Numbered from the whole stretch's first letter, positions 348 through 42,445 are shown. The stretch is 63,655 nucleotides of DNA, filler included, from Craspedostauros australis (GCA_030167865.1; 14 parts of 14 records of this genome joined end to end with filler, not necessarily neighbours in it); one strand, 5' to 3'. The notes: generated by a model not told the origin, from the sequence alone. A program made the numbers and translations.

Positions 348-2027
348 CTACTTCGAAGGTCTCGCCTTCCACACGAAGTCCAGCTGATTCAGCTTTTTGA
401 TGCGTTCTTCGCTGATGTTGCTGGGTTGATTCTGGCTGAGCTTTTTGTACTGCCGCCGCTGGCACTTCACCCAGATTGCGAGCTTCGGGTTCTCACCGTA
501 CGTGGAGGGTACGTTGCTGTGCCCGTGCAGTTCTCGGAATTCCTTGAGCTCGTTCAATCGAGTCTCCCACTGAGATGTCAGCGTGTCCCATACGAATCCG
601 ATGTCGTTGAGCACTGCGATGCGCTCCGTTGTCATAGTCGATTGCTTGCCTTCGTTGAGGAGCTTGAACTGGTATCTCTGACGCTTCACCCAACGAAAGA
701 GCGTTGGGTGCCTGGCGTAAGTGTTGGGCACCAAGCAATGACCGTAGGTGTCGCGAAATTGGATGAGCTCCTCGTACCTTGCCTTCCATTGTTCGGATTG
801 GAAGACACGGAAGCGCCCAGGCGATGTCGGTGACATAGTTGAACCATCAGGGCCACCGTCCGAGGCCGCGTTGTCTTCACCTTTGATCTTCTTCTGCGGC
901 GACTGTGGCTCAGGTTGTTCCAGCATCGTGTCGGGATCATCATCGAGCTTCCTTTTGGCATACGGGCGCGCTCCTGACTGGGATGCGTTCGCCATATTGG
1001 TAGTCATCGATGCTTGGATGTGCACGTCTAAATTTGACGGTGTAGGTGTTGGAGCTAGCACCGAGATCAATGACACAGGTGGCAATGTGAGTGATGGTAG
1101 TTGCGGAACGGACAGAACTTCGGCGAGGGATGATCCGACGTCCAAGGCTGACGGAAATGGAGCGAAGCTGGCATTGATGCTTTCGCTTGCGATGTCGAGG
1201 CTGCTCCGTCGGGTGACATTGGCGGAACGGCGAACGGCTCTACTAGTCGGCATGGGATCCTCGTTGTGGATGCCGCCCTTGCCCTTGCCATTGCCATTGC
1301 CATTGCGATTGTCACCATTGTCGTTGCGGTTCCTTCCTTGTTCATCGAAGATGTCTGAACCTATGGATCCCAGTGAGTGATCATCAGAGGTATCTGGAAG
1401 ACCTTCCAACTCGTCGATGATCGGAGACGGCGGTGATGGTTTTGTCGTTGCTGTTAACGTGGTGACTTGGCTGTGCAAGCTCTTTGGGACGTCTGGAGCC
1501 ATCGGCTTTGCATCGTAGAACGGGTCGGCCAATCTCCTCCGTCCTGCCGGGGCCTTTTGTTGTTGCTGAGCATTCACATGTTGGTGGTGGTGGTGGCTTT
1601 GGTTGATATTTTTGAGGCCCCCGATCATGGTCCTCGTCACCATGTTCGACAAATGGCCGTGGCCGCCATGTCCAGCGGCGCCTGACTTTGGGAGAGGAAC
1701 TGAGGATAGGGACAACGCAAACGCCATTGAAGGAGGCATGGATTCAAGCTTCTGTTGCCATGACTCCGGTCGATGTGGGCCTTGTTGGGTGTCTGATGGT
1801 GTTGCTTCCTTTGCCGTTTTCGTCTTCGTCTTCGTCTGCGAGATGTAGGGCGCACCATGCTTGGGCCTTCTGTTGCCACTGTCGCCGTTGCTATTGTTGT
1901 TGCTGCTGCCACGAGTACTCGCACCATCCTTGACGCGGTCGTTCGCATGCTCGATGAGGTTGTGGTTCATGATGTCCTCTGTGTGCTGAAGGATGGAACA
2001 GAGATCGGGCACTGGGCTGATGAACAT
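348..2027 (-). CDS. Helicase-associated (HA) domain protein: two C-terminal HA repeats after a long disordered N-terminus
   Basis: Intact 559-aa ORF ending in two tandem HA motifs (QWKARYEELIQFRDTYGHCLVP..LFRWVKRQR..ERIAVLNDIGFVW; QWETRLNELKEFRELHGHSNVP..LAIWVKCQR..ERIKKLNQLDFVW). No helicase core. The start may be the later ATG (MNHNL, ~1970). Confidence 0.9.
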   Translation of the reverse strand: MFISPVPDLCSILQHTEDIMNHNLIEHANDRVKDGASTRGSSNNNSNGDSGNRRPKHGAPYISQTKTKTKTAKEATPSDTQQGPHRPESWQQKLESMPPSMAFALSLSSVPLPKSGAAGHGGHGHLSNMVTRTMIGGLKNINQSHHHHQHVNAQQQQKAPAGRRRLADPFYDAKPMAPDVPKSLHSQVTTLTATTKPSPPSPIIDELEGLPDTSDDHSLGSIGSDIFDEQGRNRNDNGDNRNGNGNGKGKGGIHNEDPMPTSRAVRRSANVTRRSSLDIASESINASFAPFPSALDVGSSLAEVLSVPQLPSLTLPPVSLISVLAPTPTPSNLDVHIQASMTTNMANASQSGARPYAKRKLDDDPDTMLEQPEPQSPQKKIKGEDNAASDGGPDGSTMSPTSPGRFRVFQSEQWKARYEELIQFRDTYGHCLVPNTYARHPTLFRWVKRQRYQFKLLNEGKQSTMTTERIAVLNDIGFVWDTLTSQWETRLNELKEFRELHGHSNVPSTYGENPKLAIWVKCQRRQYKKLSQNQPSNISEERIKKLNQLDFVWKARPSK

Positions 2028-4020
2028 GCTTGGCCTTGTCGTTGTTGCGCTGCAAGGGTGTTGCTGTCACCCTTTTTGTGCGGATACGGATGTCAAATGT
2101 TTGGCGAAGTTGGTGAACTTGGGGTGATGGAGAGCAATGAGCGATCCTCTTGGTCTTGGCCGTTTGAGTGACTCAATGGATTGTTTGGTGGAATATTCAA
2201 TGAAGGAGGGTGTGTGTTCGATAGGTGATTGTGTCGCAAGGGTGCTTGTCGCGGAGGGTTTGCTGTTTGGTTGCTTTTTGTTCGGTGATGCGATTTATGA
2301 GTTGTTGCTTCGTTTGTTTCTTTCATGTGTTGTTGTGTTTTCTCTTCCCCCTGTTTGTGAAGCAGTTTGTGCGAGTCCGTGGGAGGCGACGTCACGTGCG
2401 AATGATTGTGGCGACAGACAAAGGATCATCCGCTTTGTGGAAACAGGATCACTGGGTCGTCAGCGCTCTTGGGCCTGTGGTTGCGATGAAAAGAAGAGCC
2501 AAGGATTCAAACAGGAGCTGTTTGTTCTCGCATCTGTGGGCTACTGTACTCGTACCATGCCACGCTGTGCCATGCCGTGCCACCACCAAACTCGCGCAGA
2601 TGCTGCGGAAAGGTACAAGCAATGTGGCGAATTTTGTCTCACCAGTACTAATACCCCCCTTTGAGACTCAGAGCACGACCACAGAGCACAAAGGAACAAA
2701 ACGGGCAAACCAAGAGAAAGAAAGTTGTGACAGCAACCCCGAAACCAAGACGCTGGCGATTTCTTAGAGGCAATTTGGCCCATAGCACTAGGGACACAAG
2801 ACAATTACTCTGCCCGTGACCCCAATCCCAGTAGGGCAGTAACAAGGTGCCGTGTTGACGAATGAGCGCTTTTGGTCCTTCAAACGCGAAGGTCATTGGC
2901 ACTTTCCGACGCTGGCTGTTGAAGTGATCAGGCCTGAAGGATAAAAAGTCTCGGCCTGTGGTAGTGTTGTGCCTGTTCGTCATTCCACGCGCTATTGCTT
3001 GTGCCATTCTCACCTCCACTAACGGTGCGGTATCTGCTGTTGTGACGCAGCAAAGACGAGCACGGTTTGGACGATGCGGCGACGATCTGGTCCTTGGGGC
3101 AACACAGACACTCTCTTTTCAGCCACAACATGACCTAACGCACAATGCAGCGTGATAATCTCCTCTCCAGTAACCCACCACACCACACCACACCATGCCG
3201 TGCTATGCCATGGCCATGCATGCAGGCATAGAGCACACGAGCGAAACCGCAATGCCGATGAAGTACTGTGCTCGCATCTGTGCGAGTTATGCATGTTTCA
3301 TGAGCGGCAACCATTTGCTGAGCAGTCTGTTGTACGAGCTAATCGTGATGAAGGCTGAGTGAGTTTCCCACCGCACCGTTTCTTCAATGTTTGTGTACTC
3401 TCGAGTGGATGAGAGTACGGAGTAGTATGGAATAGTATGGAATAGTGGAGGAGTTTGTGTTCGTCACCACGCTCCTTGTGTGCTTTTGTCATGGAGTTGG
3501 CGTGGTCACGACTACGAGACAGAGATCTCCTAACCATCCTTTCCCTGTTTCTCTGCTCACTTTCTCCCTCTCTCTCTCTGGAGCGTTGCGCTTGTCATGA
3601 CTTTTCCCTTGGGGAAAGCGCGCGGCTTCCCAAGAGATAGACGAACAGGCACGATCAGGGCAGAGCCATCCCTTCTCCTCTTTGGCCTCGTCAGCAAACA
3701 CATCTTCTACCTTCGTGTGTCCTCTCCTTGTGAACGCCCTGGGAAAACTCGGTTCCTCTGCCCGAGGTTAGTTGATGCGTTCCCTTGCGAAATGCGCCTT
3801 TTGCTCTGTTGGCGCGTTCTCTTTCTCTCGCCAGCGTGCTTCGCCTTTTTCATCGTTTGTGGACGCCAACCTGGTGCCTCTGCCAGAGCGAATGGCAGAG
3901 CAGGCAGCCGAGCACATCCATAACAGAACCTGGGAGGACAACAGGGCACGGCAGGGCAATCGTCCCGTGTTAATGCAGCACGCGACCATTGGACGCAACG
4001 TGATGGCGTTGGCGCACGCT

Positions 4021-4071
4021 ACTAACACTGCCACTAACACTCCCACTAACACTGCCACTAACACTGGCACT
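4021..4071 (+). repeat. 12-bp tandem minisatellite (ACTAACACTGCC-like) x~4
   Basis: actaacactgcc actaacactccc actaacactgcc actaacactggc act read directly. Confidence 0.85.
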
Positions 4072-7000
4072 ACCACAATCGTGATCCATGGATACGATGT
4101 CCGCGGTTTGTTCAAACGATGGCAAAACTTCCCAAGCGTGTTGTGATTCGGGTTTGTTGTGGCAATGGTACCTCAGGGAAGGAAACCGAGGTGGCAACGG
4201 AGGCCTGTTTGTCTCAGTTGTGACTTTCATAAATTCCAGACACAGATGGTGTGGGCGCTCGTCGGAGTGTGTCGTGGTCGCTGGCTCTTTGATCGGTCGC
4301 CCCGACATCTCTCCGCACTCGTACCGTAATCTTCCGTCGTATTATATGTAGAGCATGGTCGATGATTGGAGACTGCGCTGTCTACACCTCGTGCACAACC
4401 GATGCCTGATGCCTGGCGTCTCGCACACTGTCAATCTCCAAATGAAGCGCACACTAATATTATAATTCGTTCAGCGTTTCTCATTGCATCTTGTTGCGCT
4501 CAGGCATGATTGCCAGTCTCAACCACGAGCAGAGGAAGGCAGTCAGATCTGGCTCGTGCTTTAAGTCAAGATCAAAACGATGGTGTATAGTAGCTCTCTA
4601 TTGTGCCATGTAAAATGCGCATGTGGCACTATGGAATTTCGAGGCGGAATAGCATCGAGAGATGGAAGAGGGCAACATACAAGCCATCCTCATCCATAGA
4701 GACCCGCGCTCGGCAAAGTCTCGACACTCAAGGAATAGAACAATCGTGCCCAGACTTGTGCCCATTCCATGTGATCTGTTGTTGGCCTGATACTGACGCA
4801 AAGGAGAGCACCACCAACGCCCAGCGAAGTTCTGCGATTCCGAGGAAGCACAGGAAGTCAGACTTCTGACCGGTTCTCCGATCCACCAAGGGTCAACCCT
4901 CGCGTAGCGCAGGGACGAGGATGACATCGCCATGGCCCGCACGTGCCAACCGGCGCCGACCAAGAAAGGTGACGATTTCGACAGAGCACAGGACAACCGG
5001 ACAAGAGGAGGGGGGACCACAGAAATACCAGCGCGGCTCTGATCCCTGAGTTTCGATCACGATTGATAATCTCAAGAGAACAGACCAGTTCGTCCCAAGA
5101 AGGGAGGTGCAGGCTGGAAACGTTTGCACGAGCCAGAGCAGGTCATCATCTGCCAGAGAGGAGATCAAAATGGCCGGCGCGAATGCGCGCCATTGGGACA
5201 TACGAGCAAATCCATACTCGATCACCGCTCGCGCGAGGTATCTGGCCATGTAACCGGTAGAATACCATTCTTTTCTCGGTGGTGTAGTTGGTTGTGGTGG
5301 TGTATTTCCCTGTACATAACGCCAACACAACCACCCGAGTACCCAAAAGGAAGAGACAGAGAAAACCAAATAGGACCATGGAACGAGCGGACATCACTGA
5401 ATGATGCAGCTCACAAAATCAGAGCAGCGCACTTCCCATCAAATGCCGATAGGCGAAACACGAGCTCGTGCGTATTGGTACGGAGCATCAAGCATGCCTA
5501 TATTACTTTCGAGGACGCAGGTCGTACTCGTACTCTAGTATAATATGATACGAGCTGTGCTGACAACCCCCTGACCGCATCGGCTCTCCGATTTTTCATG
5601 GTGACACCAACAGGTGCTCCAACCATGAAAACGATGTTGCGCAACCTGTGGCGAGCACAGTTCCTCCTCAGATCATGGCGCGCCCACTGATTGATCCAAC
5701 ACACACAGCAAAAGAGTGGGGATCATACCTCTCGCTCTCTACCCGTAGAGGCTACATGGATATACGGATAGATCAGGACCAGTATTGCTTGTGCTGCAAA
5801 TCGTGGGCAGGTGCAAGTACACAGCTGTCCTCCCCTGCCCAAGGGCGAACATGAGAGTAGTGCAATATTGTGCGGAACTACTCTACCACTGTAGTCAATC
5901 GTCGCACAGCGCGGTACGGTTTCAACCCAACACCAATCTACTCCGGGAGTATCCATCCGCGCAACCTATTACATTACACTCCATTAGTTCGCAGAGTAGA
6001 GTATTGCAGAGCGACGCTCTCGAGAGCAAGCGCTGGACCCATGCTTACCGAGTTTCCTGATCGTGGCAGAGCTGAACTATTATTATATTTGAAACGCCGA
6101 AGCACTCCCAAAAGATGTGACCCTCAGAGTAGGTTGGAGCAGGGTGGGTCTCCAAATCTACAAAGGCACCTACGATTACACGTTTGGTAGGAGTACAATA
6201 GATACGACTATGTCCACGACGTCTCCATCACCGCCTCCACGAACGTTTGGGCGCTCGCAGTTCCCCATCTCGTCGACACACCATAATCTAATTGCTGGTC
6301 TCCGTGTTGTTGTTGTCGTCGTCACAAACCACCACAAGATTCGGAGAATCCGGTACCTTTCATTGCCAACCTCTCCTCCCAAAGTCCATGGTCGAACCAG
6401 ATGGAAACAGGCGGTTTGTTCCCACTGTTTGCACACAGCGGAGTATGATACGCACTCCTGCGATCATAGGCAATTCGTCTCGACGAAGTTGCAGAAACGG
6501 GAACGGCAACGCCAGAAACCTACTTTGGAGGACAGTGTTGCACTATACTCCATGTACGAGCATGTATTGACGAGGGAGCAATCGTTTTTCAGGTCATCAC
6601 CAAGATTGGATTGTCATTGGACAGGTGAACGGCACGTACGTACCAATGCTCGTACTACTCGTAGTAGTAGGATGACAACAAGACCTGACATTGCCACACC
6701 AGCAGCCCAACGGCGTACACTTGCATAACGTTCGTCTACTTGCGCTTGCGTTGCACAAAATAGTACTCCCCCTATGAAGGGTGGGGTGGGATCATTGCGT
6801 CTGTGGTTACGGGTGTGCACGGGTGCGGGTATGGTGCCTGTGCCATGTTTGGTATGGGAAGGCTCCGCACCACGCGATAGTGCATTCGCGCAAAGCAGCC
6901 CAAGCAGAGTTTGAGTTTTTGAGTAACAGATGTGCACAGAGTATGCACCCATGACACTCCAGAGAGAAATATTCATCCCCAAGCACCAGGGGATCGCGAC

Positions 7001-26378: not shown

Positions 26379-26422
26379 NNNNNNNNNNNNNNNNNNNNNN
26401 NNNNNNNNNNNNNNNNNNNNNN

Positions 26423-35187: not shown

Positions 35188-35287
35188 NNNNNNNNNNNNN
35201 NNNNNNNNNNNNNNNNNNNNNNNNNNNNNNNTTAATTAATTAANNNNNNNNNNNNNNNNNNNNNNNNNNNNNNNNNNNNNNNNNNNN

Positions 35288-38056
35288 TGCGCGAGGCCCT
35301 GGTCTTCATCTCGACAACAAAGACCTCATCATCTTCATCGTTGGTGCTGTCTCCGACAACCGCGAGAAAGTCAACGGATGATCGAGCATAGGGCTTGTCT
35401 CCGCGATGCACCAACCCTGCTGTGTATGCGGCCTTCACACAGCTAGGATCTTCAGTCAATTTCGATATCTTCTCAGCTTTCTTCATGAGTGGCTGCTCAT
35501 TGGTGTGGCCAAGTCTGGTGGCACGTCGCTCCTCACCAGTGAAAGGCTTCATGAACCACGTCTTCAGTGCCTCTTTCACCAAGGCCTCCTTCAGCGCCAT
35601 CATGCCTCCGTCCTCTTCGTTATTCCTCACGTCGTTGTTGGCGATGCCTTCAGTATTGCCTTCAACATTGTGTCCGGTGGCAAGCNTGACATCGGCTTCA
35701 ACAGGAAGGGAAGCCAGAGAGTCGATGCCAACGCCGTCGTCGGCCGATGGGAAACGGGCGATATTGCTGGTGATGCTGCCCTCAACATTGTCGTCGCCAC
35801 CATCCACCTCCAGATTGTCAAGAGCCAAAGTGATGGATGCTTTGTCATGCCGCACCAATGCCTTCATCATTTCACCCTTTGCCGGAAGTTTGCCAGAGTT
35901 GGGGAATCTTGCCTTGTAGATCGCCTCCATGGTCTTTGGGGTCATGGCAACATACCGGCGATCCGGCTTCTGCTGTCGTTGGATCACAGTCTTGAGCTTC
36001 TTGTAGATACTGTCGGCTGTTTTNNNNNNNNNNNNNNNNNNNNNNNNNNNNNNNNNNNNNNNNNNNNNNNNNNNNNNNNNNNNNNNNNNNNNNNNNNNNN
36101 NTCGAGCAGCCAGTCGACAGGAGGATTGTCGCGATTCTGAAGAACTTGGGTGATTGTTTGCTCGATGGATTTTGAGTCTTCGGCATCATCTGTGAGGAGA
36201 TTGAATCGCTCCCGTGCCCGATTCTTGACTTCACCTGTTCCGATCTCCACATGGGCTTGTTGCTTTCTGGCTTCAACGTCGATGCCTATGAATGTGGCAA
36301 TGATTTCCCATGCCTGATGATGGAGAACATGGCCATTCGTCTCCTTGCACCACTCGGTGCTGGCCAGGACCACGTTGATGATGTTGTGGACGGTGGAGCT
36401 CGTCAAGCAGAACTTTCGCAACATGAACCAAAGCGGATCTCGCTGTTTGCAGGTCATCCCAACAACATCAAGGTCACGAATCTTCTGTGCCCATCTCATC
36501 CTCGCCTTGTCTTCCGCATTGTCTGCTGCCTGTGAGGCTTGTTCGGCAAGGATGACGGCTGCCTTGACTGCATCTGGGTCATTTGGTGCATTCTGGATGG
36601 CTTGAATTGCATTGCCTCTGGCTTGAATTGCGAGCACCGCAGCAGGAGACTTCTCCAGGTTCATGACAGCTGCAGAGAAGTACTCTGGGAACTTCTCTGG
36701 ATGAGCCAGAAGATCTGGGTGATTCGTGCGCTTGGCTTGAACGTGGCGAAGGTACATGATCTCCTCTTTCACCTTTGCCATGGTGAGATCCCATTCGAAC
36801 CTTCCAACTCCCGTCTTTGCCATCATGATCATCTTTCCATTGTCTCGGAGACCATAGCAACAGTAGGTTGCGCCCTTCACCTTGTTGGAGGTGGCAAGGA
36901 AGAGTCTTGTGGGTTCTGTCACACTGATCATGAGTTGGTTTGGGTTGGTCCGGTATGTTCCATTGATGAATGGCATGTGTGGAGCCCTCTTGTGAGTGCC
37001 TTGAAGGTCCGCTCCACCTTCAACAAGACCCTGTGTGAGCTTGAGAGAGCCATATCCGCGATCACAGAGAACTTCTGTGTTCTGCAAACCATTGGTGGTT
37101 TCGAATTGGGTCTTGATCAGAGTCAATGCGGTGCTTGACTTGGTTTCCTGGATGACTTGGACTCCGCAAGGGACCCCGGACATCGTCATTGCCAAAGTAT
37201 CAATGGTGAATCTTTGCATTTACATTTCACAAGTTCAAGAGATAGAGAAGAAACGAAATTCGACAAGAAAGAGAGGGATGCAGACATGCATGTGGTGCGT
37301 GTGAGATTCAAAATTATCGACAATTGTACAATCATGACATACATTCAATCCCATGATCCAAAAGCAGAGGTTGTGCACAGTACAACTCACCCCCATCTGT
37401 TGGCCTTTGGATGCTTGTGCCGGGAGATGCCACTTCGCAATGTTTTGGTGCTCTCGCAGTGCACTTTATCATCATCGATTGTCACAGTGCGTTGGCCGGC
37501 CATGCCTCTCACAGCCAGTTGCTTCAAAGTGTGATTGCACTGAGCCTGGAGATCCTGCCAGAAGTAGTGAGCGTTGGACTCAATCTTGTTGCTGTCTGCA
37601 TGGATTTTGCACCACCAATCATTGTACTCGGTCTTGCTCGGGGACCCCACTTTGGTGCTCAGCAAGCCCATGGTGTACATGTTTTTCGTAGATGTCCGGA
37701 AGGTTGACTGTGTGCTGAATGCAACCATGAACTGCAGGTACTCCAATGCATCCATCTTCACATCATCCTTTGCAAATGCTTCTGTGTACAGACGAGATGA
37801 GGTACCCAAGACAAGATCAATGATATCATTCGGTGTTGGGCGTTTGCTGTCGGTGAGCTTTTGCATTGATTTCCGAATGTGCACCATCTCCTTGTTCATG
37901 ATGACTTTGCTGTCTGCACGGGCTTCACCAACTGTGACATGATGCTTCTCGTCCACCCCTGTCTGCAGCTTCCACTTCAGGCTCATGCTTGCCAGCTTTG
38001 CTGCATCGGATTTGGTGTTGCGGGTGGATGCAAGTGCAATTGTAGGAGTGGGATTG
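35288..38056 (-). mobile_element. piggyBac-like DDD transposase fused to a YqaJ/lambda-exonuclease-like PD-(D/E)xK domain; intron 37390-37212; both ends lie in gaps
   Basis: VTIDDDK, HKHPKANRWG|FTIDT (spliced GG|GTGAGT..AAG|A), VLCDRGY, LQGTHKR; then QRDPLWFMLRKFCLTSS, ATRLGHTNEQP, GLVHRGDKPYARSSVDF, VVEMKTR. Confidence 0.7.
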
Positions 38057-38156
38057 NNNNNNNNNNNNNNNNNNNNNNNNNNNNNNNNNNNNNNNNNNNN
38101 TTAATTAATTAANNNNNNNNNNNNNNNNNNNNNNNNNNNNNNNNNNNNNNNNNNNN

Positions 38157-39156
38157 CTTGTATTTGTGACTGTACCACTTCTTCGAAAAGGGCTGAGGTT
38201 CGAGGATGCGAAAGTCAGTCCCATCCACCGTGACTTTGCATGTTCGCTGTTTGTCATTCTTCAAGCGATTCCTCCATTTAATCTGTTGTACAAACTAGCA
38301 ACAGCATAAGTATTCAAAAAGGTGATGTGAGTCGTCGTTATGTAAGTGTTATCATGAGATGTATCAATCGGAAGGGTGTTCTTCACTTACCANGCCTTTG
38401 TATCCCTTCTGAATTTCATCCATCAGAAGCCAAATCCACTTCTTAAGCGTTTTGGGATCCGCAGACATTTTCGATGACAGCGCAAGAACACAATCGTAGT
38501 GTTGCAAGAAGTACAAGGTCCAATACAAATGCTTGGGATGACATTTCGGGACACCACGAGCATAGCTCCACATAACTAGGCACATGCGCGGAGAAAGCCC
38601 ATACAGAGAGATAAATTTTGTTTGTGTTGCTGGTTTCGCTGGGTCATACGACGCATTATGCCCCACAATGTCCAATCCGATTCTGNNNNNNNNNNNNNNN
38701 NNNNNNNNNNNNNNNNNNNNNNNNNNNNNNNNNNNAGTATTCAAAAAGGTGATGTGAGTCGTCGTTATGTAAGTGTTATCATGAGATGTATCAATCGGAA
38801 GGGTGTTCTTCACTTACCATGCCTTTGTATCCCTTCTGAATTTCATCCATCAGAAGCCAAATCCACTTCTTAAGCGTTTTGGGATCCGCAGACATTTTCG
38901 ATGACAGCGCAAGAACACAATCGTAGTGTTGCAAGAAGTACAAGGTCCAATACAAATGCTTGGGATGACATTTCGGGACACCACGAGCATAGCTCCACAT
39001 AACTAGGCACATGCGNGGAGAAAGNCCNTACAGAGAGATAAATTTTGTTTGTGTTGCTGGTTTCGCTGGGTCATACGACGCATTATGCCCCACAATGTCC
39101 AATCCGATTCTGGTTATGTCTTTCAAGTCGTAGCGCTTTGATTGATTGTTCCGCAT
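38157..39156 (-). mobile_element. PIF/Harbinger-like (DDE_Tnp_4) transposase, 5' part with an intron; partly duplicated across the gap
   Basis: FISLYGLSP..HPKHLYWTLYFLQHY..DPKTLKKWIW, GTAAGT donor, then an exon from ~38282 reading IKWRNRLKNDKQRTCKVTVDGTDFRILEPQPFSKKWYSHKYK (first catalytic D in VDGTD). Confidence 0.75.
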
Positions 39157-39413
39157 GTGTGCCGTGTCACAGTCAAAAGCAGCAGAGTGCGGCGTTGTGA
39201 GGCAGGCAACAAAGGGTTTGTGTGAGGTTGTGTTTCGGGTCGCTGCGCTTTGCCTCGACACATCAAGCTCCGCACAGGACATCATGTCGCCACACAAACA
39301 AACACCCATCACANNNNNNNNNNNNNNNNNNNNNNNNNNNNNNNNNNNNNNNNNNNNTTAATTAATTAANNNNNNNNNNNNNNNNNNNNNNNNNNNNNNN
39401 NNNNNNNNNNNNN

Positions 39414-42345
39414 TGGCCAATGGCCGTCGTACACGCCGCGTACATCTATAATCGCGTGCCTAATCCCGCCACCGGCCTCACACCTTATGATGTTCTGTCA
39501 CGCATCCGTCTTCCCCTCAAGCAACTTCATAACCTGCACGTATGGGGCAGTCCAGTCTATGTCCTTAACAAAGCACTGGCTGATGGACGCAAAATACCCC
39601 GATGGGAACCAAGAGGAGAAAGATACGTGAACATGGGTCTCTCTACGAAGCATGCCTCAACCGTACCTCTGGTCCTATCACCACGGACAGGTTCAATCAC
39701 ACCCCAGTTCCATGTTGTGTTCGATGACTGGTTCGCAACGATTGCTACCGACTTGAAGCAACTTCCAAGCTATCAATCGGAAGAATGGACTCGCATGTTT
39801 GGTGACACAACCTTCCAATATCCATTCGATGACGACGATGTGGAATCAATGGAGCAGGACGACATTTTCGCATCAGATACACGAGACCACAACCGGTTAC
39901 AATGCAACGACAATAATACTCCACCACCGAGAATCGATACGCGAAACCAACAAACCATCCGTGAAAGAGCGCCACAGGTATTGGCGAAAGAGTCGCAACC
40001 AAGGACACAACAGATCCCGGACCTCATGAGTGAAACTCTCGCCCCTCCAATGCCAGTCTCAGAGGGAGCCGATAGGCAAATGTCTTTGACAGAGGGAGCT
40101 ACCTATGAGTCCCCGGTATCTGATCCTACTATAGAATCATCGGACCAGCGAACACTTCAACCGCAATCGAGTCCACCTCTCCAAGAGTCGCCAATTTCAG
40201 AACCGGCAACTCCATTACCACTCTCAGCTCCGACGCAAATTGATACCAGCTCCACACCACCCACGATGCCTAAGTCTGAGCCAACGCCAACAAGGCTCCG
40301 AAGCACGAGAAATCGCAAACAACCAAAGCGATTCACGTATGCGCGCATGGGAGGCAAAGCAGCCTGGTTGGACGACGAGGACACCGATGATTACTACTTC
40401 TGCCCTGCAGTAGCTACCTTGGAAGAAATCGAACAGGCCACCACACCCAGGGAATTGCACCCCGATTCATCATCGATCATCAAATTCTCACAAGCTGTCG
40501 TCGATTGCCTACATACAATTGAACCTCTCCAACGCAAAGGCAGCGACTCTCTCTCCATCGATCTACACCAATTCAAGGTGGACGCCCACTACTTGTTGCG
40601 CAGACTTCGAGGTCGATTCAACACATTGAATCCACAGCCAACCAACGTCGTCCTTCCAACGTTTGCTCCAAAGCCGGCTGAAGCAGAAGAAGCAAGCATC
40701 AACATGGCCGACTGGTGGCAACCGGACCCCGACGACATGACCNAGGAAGGAGCGACTCCATTTCAGGAGACGTACAACAACTTCCACTCGGACATGGAGG
40801 ACCACTTCGAGAAAGACCTCAACAGTGTCTTTCTCAACGAAGACCTCCTCCGACTGGCCACTGACCACGCCGTCGAGCAGTTCGTGGAGAAGCTGAGCAC
40901 CTTTATCAGCACTGGCACGATGGAACCTCGCTTCGACGCTCTCGACTTCATGTCCAAGGCCAAATCAGGGCCATGGTACTACCAAGATCCCGAGCACTTG
41001 ATGAACCAAGGGTACCTTCCACCCAAATCTGCGTACAGCGCAGAAGCNNNNNNNNNNNNNNNNNNNNNNNNNNNNNNNNNNATGATCGAAAATCATCACT
41101 ACCGTCTCGCATTCGAGCTGCTCCGTCGCCAGGTGACGACGATCCGACCAGGACCCTGGCTACGCCCAAGCGAATATGAGATTGAGCAATTCGTCCAAGG
41201 CATGATTGAGTCGAACACGGCGCCACTCACTTCGGCCCCAGCGACCCGTTCTGCCAACCAAGGATCCATGCTCGATATCGACTCGTCATCCACACTCGAA
41301 ATCAATCCGTCATTCATCCTTGACACAGCGAAGTGCATTCCATCAACTACATGGGCGAACATCGAGCAGCATGCCTACTCTGTCGCAATCATCGAGCCAC
41401 AGAAGGATGCAACAAACTNNNNNNNNNNNNNNNNNNNNNNNNNNNNNNNNNNNNNNNNNNNNNNNNNNTACTCTGTCGCAATCATCGAGCCACAGAAGGA
41501 TGCAACAAACTTCCCCACCTACGTCGATAATCGCATGATCAGCTACTTCGCCGCAGGTGGCGACTTGGATATCGCCGAACGCACTTCGGTGTACAAGGCA
41601 TCCAACACCGACCCAGACACCCTCTCCTTCGACGAAGCCATTCGCGACGACAACAAGGACGAGTGGATGCAAGCCGCCGAAAAGGAGATTCGAGATCTCA
41701 CGGAAAAGGGCACGTGGGAGGAAGTGAAGAAGATCGACGTTGTCAACGATCGCATCTTTCCAGGAACCTGGGTCTTTCGCCGCAAGCGACTCCCCGACGG
41801 AACCATCAAGAAATACAAGGGACGCTGGTGTTGCCGTGTAGACCTCATGCATGAGGACGCCTCCACCTATGCACCAGTCGTCGCATGGTCATCCGTCCGC
41901 ATCTTCCTCAGCACTTCCATCGTCATGGGCTGGACAACAACTTCCATCGACTTCACGAACGCTTTCGTGCAAGCATCCATCCACAAGCCCGTCTACCTTC
42001 ATCTCCCTCGCGGATTCAAATCAACGAAGGGTCCCGACACCTGCCTCAAGCTCCGCAAGAGCCTGTACGGCTTGACGATTGCTCCTCGCCTCTGGTATGA
42101 ACACCTNNNNNNNNNNNNNNNNNNNATCGGCTTCAAGGCCTGCGACCAAGAGCAGTGCTTGTTCATCAAGCAAGACATCATGATCGTCCTCTACGTTGAC
42201 GATGCGGGCATCGCCTCCAAGACTAAGCAAGCCGCCGACGACTTTATCAAGTCAATGCGTGACCTCGGCTTCGAGCTCACCCAAGAAGGAAGCTTCAACG
42301 AGTTCCTGGGAATCGAGCTCAGCCGTGACCCAAAAGCAGACACGG
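39414..42345 (+). mobile_element. pol: Ty1/copia pol fragment: integrase C-terminus, long linker, reverse transcriptase
   Basis: HAAYIYNRVP, WGSPVYVL, KIPRWEPR, ITPQFHVVFDDWF; RT motifs TWVFRRKR, YAPVV, SIDFTNAFVQA, KSLYGL, LYVDD. IN before RT is copia order. Confidence 0.92.
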
Positions 42346-42445
42346 NNNNNNNNNNNNNNNNNNNNNNNNNNNNNNNNNNNNNNNNNNNNTTAATTAATTA
42401 ANNNNNNNNNNNNNNNNNNNNNNNNNNNNNNNNNNNNNNNNNNNN

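Follow-up and report, generated by a model that had tools for sequence, protein, structure and literature searches.

An internal fragment of a piggyBac-superfamily transposase gene with a probable nested nuclease on an unplaced scaffold of Craspedostauros australis

Whether a cut-and-paste transposase can house a second nuclease within its own catalytic domain is the question raised by positions 35288-38056 of a 63,655-nucleotide (nt) stretch of DNA from Craspedostauros australis (GCA_030167865.1), the whole of which is referred to below as the window. Genome engineering relies on piggyBac as one of its main tools, and the mechanism of this transposase, with hairpin intermediates and seamless excision, is well understood. 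A prediction made from the sequence alone (the original prediction) had read the locus as a piggyBac-like transposase carrying a YqaJ/lambda-exonuclease domain in the same polypeptide. The analysis reported here leads, with good confidence, to the reading that the scaffold carries an internal gene fragment from a distinct lineage of piggyBac-superfamily transposases with a nested nuclease. It is carried by the collinear match of the fragment to a family of related proteins, by the predicted fold of one of these relatives and by the order of catalytic motifs in relatives that extend beyond the ends of the scaffold.

The gene fragment and its family

Positions 35288-38056 comprise exactly one unplaced scaffold, interrupted internally by a single stretch of 78 N, and are bounded by artificial linkers of the form N44-TTAATTAATTAA-N44 at 35188-35287 and 38057-38156, which are scaffold boundaries and not biology. 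Because the adjacency between scaffolds was created by such linkers, the sequences flanking 35288-38056 are not its true genomic neighbours, and because the coordinates coincide with one scaffold between linkers, the transposase gene is cut at both ends. It runs along the minus strand through 836 stop-free codons in three open stretches of 222, 369 and 245 codons and, running off both scaffold ends, leaves this copy without its N-terminus, the nuclease's C-terminal part, the segment bearing the third catalytic Asp and the Cys-rich tail.

The first exon part (37391-38055; open frame 38055 to 37391, 222 codons and 2 bases, final residues ...HPKANRWG) takes in the helical N-terminal half of the DNA-binding/dimerisation domain and, with the first catalytic Asp motif TIDDDK at 37465-37482, the first catalytic strand. 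It is followed by a 179-nt intron (37212-37390) which begins with GTGAGT at 37390, ends with AG at 37213-37212, splits a Gly codon as GG/A and preserves the frame when its flanks are joined. The second exon part (36102-37211; 369 codons after the split codon) opens at 37211 with FTIDTL..., has no stop up to the run of N at 36024-36101 and contains the second catalytic Asp in CDRGY (37052-37066), the motif GTHKR (36986-37000), a beta-stranded equivalent of the piggyBac insertion domain (YGLRDNGKMIMM...EWDL, 36785-36856), a linker rich in Ala and, at 36395-36445, the first of the nuclease motifs (QRDPLWFMLRKFCLTSS). The assembly gap of 78 N (36024-36101) falls about where relatives have a variable linker and a SAP-type region. 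The third part (35288-36023; open frame 36023 to 35288, 245 codons, final residues ...VEMKTRASR) consists of a low-complexity acidic linker and the nuclease core, with LGHTNEQP at 35490-35513, the catalytic Asp of the nuclease in SSVDF at 35367-35381 and its E-x-K in VEMK at 35304-35315, five codons beyond which the scaffold stops. The motifs quoted in the original prediction were all recovered at their places in the translated sequence.

A phmmer search of 1.84e9 (1.84 billion) representative sequences with the second piece returned 6 weak matches (E 7.6e-7 to 4.4e-4), from which a profile was built that retrieved 18 proteins, and of 304 pattern matches in metagenome contigs 32 were confirmed as loci. 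Seeding a search with protein P0003 led to a sister clade of 29 proteins, several of them uninterrupted at 856-1007 residues; its named members belong to the diatom Fragilaria crotonensis and to Phytophthora (oomycetes), the remainder being unnamed metagenome or assembly sequences. Using tblastn, 20 of 23 family proteins matched the window, only within 35292-37980 and in collinear order, and neither tblastn with relatives nor a survey of open frames revealed a second copy of the transposase gene within the window. A family hidden Markov model (HMM) was built without rows from the scaffold copy and used to score the pieces with Z set to 1.8e9: the first piece matched at 110.9 bits (profile positions 35-232), the second at 118.5 bits (234-520) and the third at 66.3 bits (617-724), all collinear and at E <= 1.6e-13. 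The sister-clade HMM matched the second piece at 56.2 bits in two collinear stretches. The two clades were compared directly in hhalign using alignments with no common rows (A4 for the clade of the scaffold copy, A7 for the sister clade), which gave 99.9% and E 5.7e-36 over 736 columns; a comparison of A3 with A7 (E 3e-68) was not counted, as P0003 and P0005 are present in both alignments, which are hence not independent.

The same profiles bear on the two joins in the gene model. The exon junction lies between profile positions 232 and 234, where relatives read ...NRxG-F..HT without interruption, and both the splice and the continuation across the run of N are supported by homology, since relatives and profile read collinearly through both. 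The predicted intron is thus upheld by its splice signals, by the frame-preserving GG/A codon and by the continuity of relatives and profile. The predicted continuation of the third open reading frame (ORF) past the gap stands as to collinearity with the family profile; as to frame, which differs between the second and third parts, it is compatible with one gene only because the length of the gap is arbitrary.

The whole gene is present at several of the relatives' loci, among them L004, L009/L011/L010, L002, L003, L015 and L019/L020, and in L004 it consists of ORF1 (709-3423), a short intron (3424-3480) and ORF2 (3481-4587). Decayed copies with stops or frameshifts are found at L028, L025 and L006. 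The copies L019 and L020 differ in that one is without 166 nt in the nuclease domain (L020 2940-3105), the region of the Q..H helix being lost and the frame kept; that copy is a natural internal-deletion derivative. Intron positions vary by lineage: the scaffold copy has one after ...NRWG, where metagenome relatives have none, and in many relatives a short intron interrupts the nuclease or comes directly after ...RY (e.g. P0007 and P0015; L004 3424-3480; L009 2559-2582) and truncates their gene models. P0010 is an in-frame read-through of such a short intron, and a search with its C-terminal region at near lengths returned P0010 itself only.

Fold relationships of the transposase and the nuclease

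The structure of L004 ORF1 was modelled with AlphaFold2 (905 residues, mean predicted local distance difference test (pLDDT) 68, well ordered over residues 50-410 and 710-900). Among solved structures, Foldseek matched this model best, at E 1.2e-6, with the strand-transfer complex of piggyBac (6x67_C), Tn5 and piggyBat coming next. VIA-align, which is independent of Foldseek, aligned the model with 6x67_C at Z 15.0 and a root-mean-square deviation (RMSD) of 3.7 over 290 residues (model 81-504, chain 117-499), including the equivalent of the first exon part of the scaffold copy, and gave Z 12.4 for piggyBat, 10.3 for Tn5 and 5.1 for the hAT enzyme Hermes. A Foldseek search of BFVD returned only transposases of the IS4 type, together with weak alkaline-exonuclease rows (E 0.07-0.17). 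On the sequence side, PF13843 matched 7 of the 15 sister-clade proteins scanned with Pfam at 24.4-37.0 bits (gathering threshold 22.4), and the piggyBac zinc finger PF13842 was seen at the extreme C-terminus of three of the 15 at 18.3-20.5 bits, short of the 24 set as its threshold; the Cys/His pattern of this tail is kept in relatives from the clade of the scaffold copy, in a segment that lies off the scaffold. Because the L004 fold, the PF13843 matches in the sister clade and the homology between the clades all point the same way, membership of the family in the piggyBac superfamily is accepted, that of the scaffold copy by homology, and the piggyBac relationship proposed originally is retained. 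The family resembles piggyBac of Trichoplusia ni (6x67) and piggyBat (9c0f) in having a helical domain at the N-terminus, a core of RNase-H type and an insertion domain of beta strands, as judged from L004, and its more complete members also in a candidate third-Asp motif, G-G-x-D, and a Cys-rich C-terminus.

Nucleases of the lambda-exonuclease/YqaJ group share a motif series that comprises an N-terminal helix with Q..W..R...T(S/A/G)(S/T), followed by G..NE, D, E-x-K and Q..H. Residues 711-905 of the L004 model were aligned by VIA-align with LHK-Exo, an alkaline exonuclease (3syy_A; RMSD 2.8 over 105 residues), at Z 8.6, a score only just over the tool's stated background of 7-8, and with Dna2 at 7.2, the phage exonuclease 3k93 at 7.1, lambda exonuclease (3slp) at 6.4 and mimivirus R354 (5yet) at 6.2; other PD-(D/E)xK enzymes scored 5-7.5, so that the margin of the lambda-exonuclease-type matches is modest. 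The model thus firmly indicates a PD-(D/E)xK fold class for the nested domain, whereas its assignment to the lambda-exonuclease/YqaJ subfamily is only probable, because Z 8.6 is little above the background. A profile of the sister clade compared with R354 gave two collinear, non-significant stretches (E 0.39), covering the N-terminal helix and the catalytic Asp. The D...E-x-K residues are conserved in both clades, at about 20-30% identity, and in the scaffold copy (SSVDF, VEMK); their retention across diverged clades and in this copy argues for a nuclease that is active. A nuclease of the kind originally predicted is therefore supported both by the match of the L004 fold to 3syy_A and by the D...E-x-K of the scaffold copy. 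It shares the PD-(D/E)xK core and D...E-x-K with lambda exonuclease and the YqaJ family (3syy, 3slp, 3k93, 5yet) and differs from them in its want of a PF09588 match, in the long, SAP-bearing linker that divides it and in being embedded in another enzyme. The SAP motif (PF02037) was detected in four of the 15 sister-clade proteins at or above the threshold of 23.9 bits (up to 37.1) and in five more at 20.7-23.8 bits; PF02037 had no match in the clade of the scaffold copy or in that copy itself, where part of the region lies in the run of N. A stretch of the scaffold copy beginning RRYVAMTPK... had been read by eye as SAP, and this reading was rejected, as BLASTP gave no alignment with the SAP-like region of L004.

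Position of the nuclease relative to the third catalytic Asp

The passages of PMC7351741 on the architecture of piggyBac place the catalytic domain at residues 263-457, broken after its fifth strand by a three-stranded insertion domain (372-433), and the third catalytic Asp at D447, directly after G444-G445; the helical DNA-binding domain is composed of residues 117-263 and 457-535, and the Cys-rich domain spans 553-594. In both clades of the family studied here the motifs follow one order, starting with the N-terminal helices, xDDD(K/L), DRGY, GTxKR..FPF and a short beta region (AYRxGxGxVxL), continuing with Q..P.WF..R.F..T(S/G)(S/T), a variable acidic linker (with the SAP motif in the sister clade), G..NE, a conserved Asp, E-x-K and Q..H, and ending with WNxxKGG(S/V/I)D, further helices and a Cys/His-rich tail. 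The beta-stranded region after DRGY and GTxKR (strands 368-408 of the L004 model) corresponds to the piggyBac insertion domain, and WNxxKGG(S/V/I)D is taken to be the probable equivalent of G444-G445-x-D447 and thus to hold the third Asp. Between the two lies a module of about 400-550 residues, the first nuclease helix of which is split from the core in the sister clade by the variable acidic linker and the SAP DNA-binding motif. In all eight proteins with the WN..KGG.D motif it follows the nuclease motifs, which in turn follow the first and second Asp, and it is the sole G-G-x-D conserved throughout the family. Most of the 35 proteins of at least 450 residues (27) end before it, mainly at an intron or a contig end. 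Conservation of the segment after the nuclease was seen in 13 of 32 loci, nine of ten aligned copies retain the Asp of GGxD, the exception being a decayed copy, and the alignment of ORF2 matches that of the sister clade at 96.8% (E 2.9e-10).

Residues 50-450 of L004 ORF1 were further submitted to complex prediction with residues 70-215 of ORF2 in three runs, alongside three controls. The score was 0.85 in the three runs as against 0.04 for the best control, relative to a mark passed by 51 of 78 solved complexes and by two of 108 mismatched pairs; the runs share at least 57% of contacts and the partner has a pLDDT of at least 52. Residues 94-184 of ORF2 are predicted to touch the N-terminal helices (73-209), the strand of the first Asp (224-234), the strands at 256-274 and residue 312 beside the second Asp. 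This predicted packing is what would be expected if the third-Asp helix came from ORF2, along with the DNA-binding domain's second half. Because GGxD follows the nuclease in relatives and its segment is predicted to pack against the N-terminal half, the nuclease is judged to be nested: with moderate to high confidence, the catalytic domain encloses the module, which has the insertion domain before it and the third-Asp helix after it. The suggestion in the original prediction that the nuclease may sit inside the RNase-H fold is accordingly favoured by the downstream GG-x-D of relatives and by a segment predicted to complete the piggyBac fold, and the GGVD-like motif sought beyond VEMK occurs there in relatives as WNxxKGGxD, the scaffold ending sooner. 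A full-length architecture in which a transposase holds a nested nuclease is judged highly probable.

Several results pull the other way. PF13843 and PF09588 were unmatched in the three pieces of the scaffold copy at E up to 1, NCBIfam gave no relevant family for them, and phmmer of the second and third pieces against PDB sequences gave no match. The original prediction was to fall if neither domain found a profile match; for the scaffold sequence none was found, and the relatives and structures nonetheless link the family to both, so that support for the two domains in the scaffold copy is transitive and structural. PF13843 had no match in the clade of the scaffold copy, nor, even at E up to 10, in the C-terminal half of the relatives' ORFs, and its matches in the sister clade span only profile positions 1-99 or 23-155 of 349, outside the catalytic core. 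PF09588 was unmatched in the scaffold pieces and in every relative scanned, including at E up to 10, and the nuclease Z score stands, as noted, close to background. The family profiles A5, A6 and A7, compared with PDB sequences at E up to 10, retrieved neither piggyBac nor lambda exonuclease but only weak SAP and R354 stretches, and an Atlas search with L004 ORF2 gave only scores under 0.9, the best being 0.85 and short of what the tool regards as a lead, to clusters of Phage_integrase or tyrosine-recombinase type. The complex score, for which family alignments were unused, may owe something to solved piggyBac structures that the predictor has memorised, in which case it may show likeness and not proof; the model of ORF2 alone has a pLDDT of 38 and hence gives no basis for aligning the third-Asp helix directly by structure, and the third-Asp segment lies off this scaffold, which ends first. 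Inverted-repeat and TTAA-anchored scans of L004, L002 and the merged L010/L011/L009 locus gave no convincing TTAA-flanked inverted pairs, and the one sharp boundary examined, shared by the paralogues L002 and L028, has no TTAA.

Three other accounts of the architecture were weighed against these data. The nuclease could be appended and not nested if the third catalytic residue preceded it, for example as the Asp of W-D-L, and WNxxKGGxD were something else; WDL is conserved in the clade of the scaffold copy, and the VIA-align alignment reaches residue 499 of the piggyBac chain although the L004 model lacks ORF2. However, W-D is absent from the sister clade, which has GPGxY/W at that place, no acidic residue between the insertion domain and the nuclease is conserved throughout the family, and GGxD is both kept in the two clades and predicted to pack, with its segment, against the first-Asp strand and the N-terminal helices, so that an appended nuclease is very improbable. 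Still harder to credit is a chimera of assembly or annotation, in which two unrelated genes were joined across the intron or the run of N: it would account for a gene in pieces and for a gap with a frame change, but the identical order of parts recurs in independent contigs and in the uninterrupted proteins of 856-1007 residues. An element of the Kolobok (KolobokE) or ISL2EU type comes to mind since these superfamilies are already known with lambda-exonuclease-like nucleases, and passages of PMC9587614 and PMC4122938 deal with such nucleases and with Kolobok in the diatom Fragilariopsis cylindrus; the structural matches to piggyBac, piggyBat and Tn5 (Z 15.0, 12.4 and 10.3, as against 5.1 for Hermes), the PF13843 matches at or above threshold in sister-clade members and, for Kolobok, a nuclease that precedes the third-Asp motif leave such an identity scarcely conceivable, the C/DxxH signature having had no specific search.

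A nested nuclease sets the family apart from the systems most like it. From piggyBac it differs by the 400-550-residue nuclease module, with its SAP motif, between the insertion domain and the third Asp, and by the failure to find TTAA duplications or piggyBac-like ends in the relatives examined. KolobokE likewise unites a DDD/E transposase and a lambda-exonuclease-like PD-(D/E)xK nuclease in one element, but the relevant passages of PMC9587614 describe the nuclease as a domain lying downstream of that of the transposase and concern another superfamily, whereas here it lies inside a transposase of piggyBac and not hAT-like fold. ISL2EU also pairs a YqaJ-type exonuclease with a cut-and-paste transposase, the exonuclease being, in the passages of PMC4122938 concerned, a separate ORF beside a PIF/Harbinger-like transposase. 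In the full-text literature no account was found of a lambda-exonuclease/YqaJ or SAP module fused to a piggyBac transposase or lying inside one, a search that lay outside Repbase Reports, subscription journals and supplements, in which a prior description is possible. The name 'piggyBacX', which the original prediction linked to a similar arrangement in Repbase, did not occur in the literature searched (Repbase Reports not covered).

Possible function, mobility and neighbouring scaffolds

Two precedents from other transposons help to frame what such an enzyme might do. In Tn7, the PD-(D/E)xK protein TnsA acts beside the DDE protein TnsB, which shows a restriction-like nuclease working with a DDE transposase, although TnsA is a separate bacterial protein; in P-element transposase, the insertion-domain site of the RNase-H fold is occupied by a functional domain, one that binds GTP and is no nuclease. 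For the present family, the DDD site would make piggyBac-type cuts and joins at the element ends, and the nested nuclease, kept in place at these DNA ends with help from the SAP motif, would resect or remove 5' strands at the breaks. Such 5' resection could steer repair of the donor gap to homology-directed copying, with retention of the donor copy and a net gain in copies, or could process the transposon ends. Resection of the 5' strands of breaks is tentatively put forward as the role of the nuclease, being the most likely of three readings while itself more doubtful than secure. In the second reading the nuclease would be a second-strand cutter, TnsA-like, that replaces or assists the piggyBac hairpin step instead of resecting ends. 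Its place within the catalytic domain, beside the DDD site in sequence, would suit that task, and PD-(D/E)xK endonucleases (among them Hjc and tRNA-splicing endonucleases) match the fold nearly as well (Z 6.6-7.5); the best nuclease match and the motif series point instead to the lambda-exonuclease/YqaJ group, and a second-strand cutter is accordingly unlikely. The third, a nuclease-dead structural insert, is made less likely by the conserved catalytic residues and is regarded as improbable. A broader and somewhat speculative proposal is that of a single-chain two-nuclease transposase in which the DDD site and the nested nuclease act jointly on the same ends, either cutting or stripping 5' strands, as a eukaryotic one-protein counterpart of TnsA and TnsB, or resecting the break at the donor site, whereupon the element would be restored by homologous repair and transposition would become effectively replicative; the family would then be an old piggyBac branch with its own non-TTAA rules for ends and targets and a conserved convergent partner gene.

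The family is likely to be mobile, as far as its sequences can tell. It might otherwise be a domesticated host gene family, derived from piggyBac, bearing the nuclease and immobile, which could serve, for example, repair or programmed DNA rearrangement. In keeping with domestication, neither TTAA-flanked terminal inverted repeats nor a target-site duplication was found in the relatives examined, several long reading frames are intact, and the conserved convergent ORF found downstream in four diverged copies could equally be conserved gene order. Against it stand the many diverged copies in few related sample sets, including the broken L028, L025 and L006 and the deletion in L019/L020, the position of the scaffold copy on a short unplaced scaffold among repeat-like ones, the sharp 5' boundary shared by the paralogues L002 and L028, and the inverted 14-mer with surrounding inverted similarity that flanks the gene pair at one locus; domestication is therefore held to be rather unlikely.

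The sequence features at the relatives' loci are as follows. In the paralogues L002 (at about 733) and L028 (at about 387), similarity sets in abruptly at one point (CCATGATTGTTTTTGATTG...), the DNA upstream being unrelated; some 100 nt inside the L002 boundary there is a palindrome of 27 nt (L002 828-896). Both flanks of the gene pair (L010, about 260-320; L009, about 5600-5700) carry a perfect 14-mer in inverted orientation (ATATCCATAGTGAG, E 0.002), with further inverted similarity and repeated ACGTAGA(A/C)C motifs around it; these sequences are candidate long imperfect terminal or subterminal repeats. Four diverged relatives (L009 4391-5182 (-), L003 3618-4220 (-), L002 and L019) have a conserved convergent ORF downstream of their transposase gene, with the motif series RPDCV..PF..DPK..C..CFC..C...C..W..HC and a C-terminal SAP-like LK..C.EKGI..G...KHKYA; Pfam assigned no family to it, and it is possibly the second gene of the element.

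A conserved second nuclease site together with a SAP motif inside the catalytic domain would differ from the separate ORF of ISL2EU and the downstream domain of KolobokE, and it makes two matters testable: how cut-and-paste elements control the repair of their own breaks, and whether new activities can generally dock at the insertion-domain site in transposases of the RNase-H fold. It also bears on the annotation of genes of 1000-1250 residues in diatoms and oomycetes which are now labelled 'hypothetical', 'SAP domain' or 'Transposase IS4'. The yield of the scaffold alone is modest, because its copy is truncated.

The rest of the window likewise consists of unplaced scaffolds, concatenated via 13 linkers of the form given above (starting at 26379, 30013, 31959, 35188, 38057, 39314, 42346, 47392, 50364, 52850, 56355, 58804 and 62323) and holding many internal runs of N, and the scaffold copy sits on a short scaffold among further repeat-like ones. 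On the next scaffold but one, the first 544 residues of a 1011-codon open frame with runs of X (39366-42401, plus strand) gave in Pfam a weak SH3_retrovirus match only (20.1 bits, below threshold), and the frame looks like a Gag-Pol of the copia type, with integrase-like and reverse transcriptase-like (...VLYVDDAGI...) parts. The adjoining scaffold (38157-39313, minus strand) has two near-identical frame copies, ending ...KMSADPKTLKKWIWLLMDEIQKGYKG and then ...VDGTDFRILEPQPFSKKWYSHKYK, which had no match in Pfam and by eye resemble a fragment of a PIF/Harbinger-type transposase.

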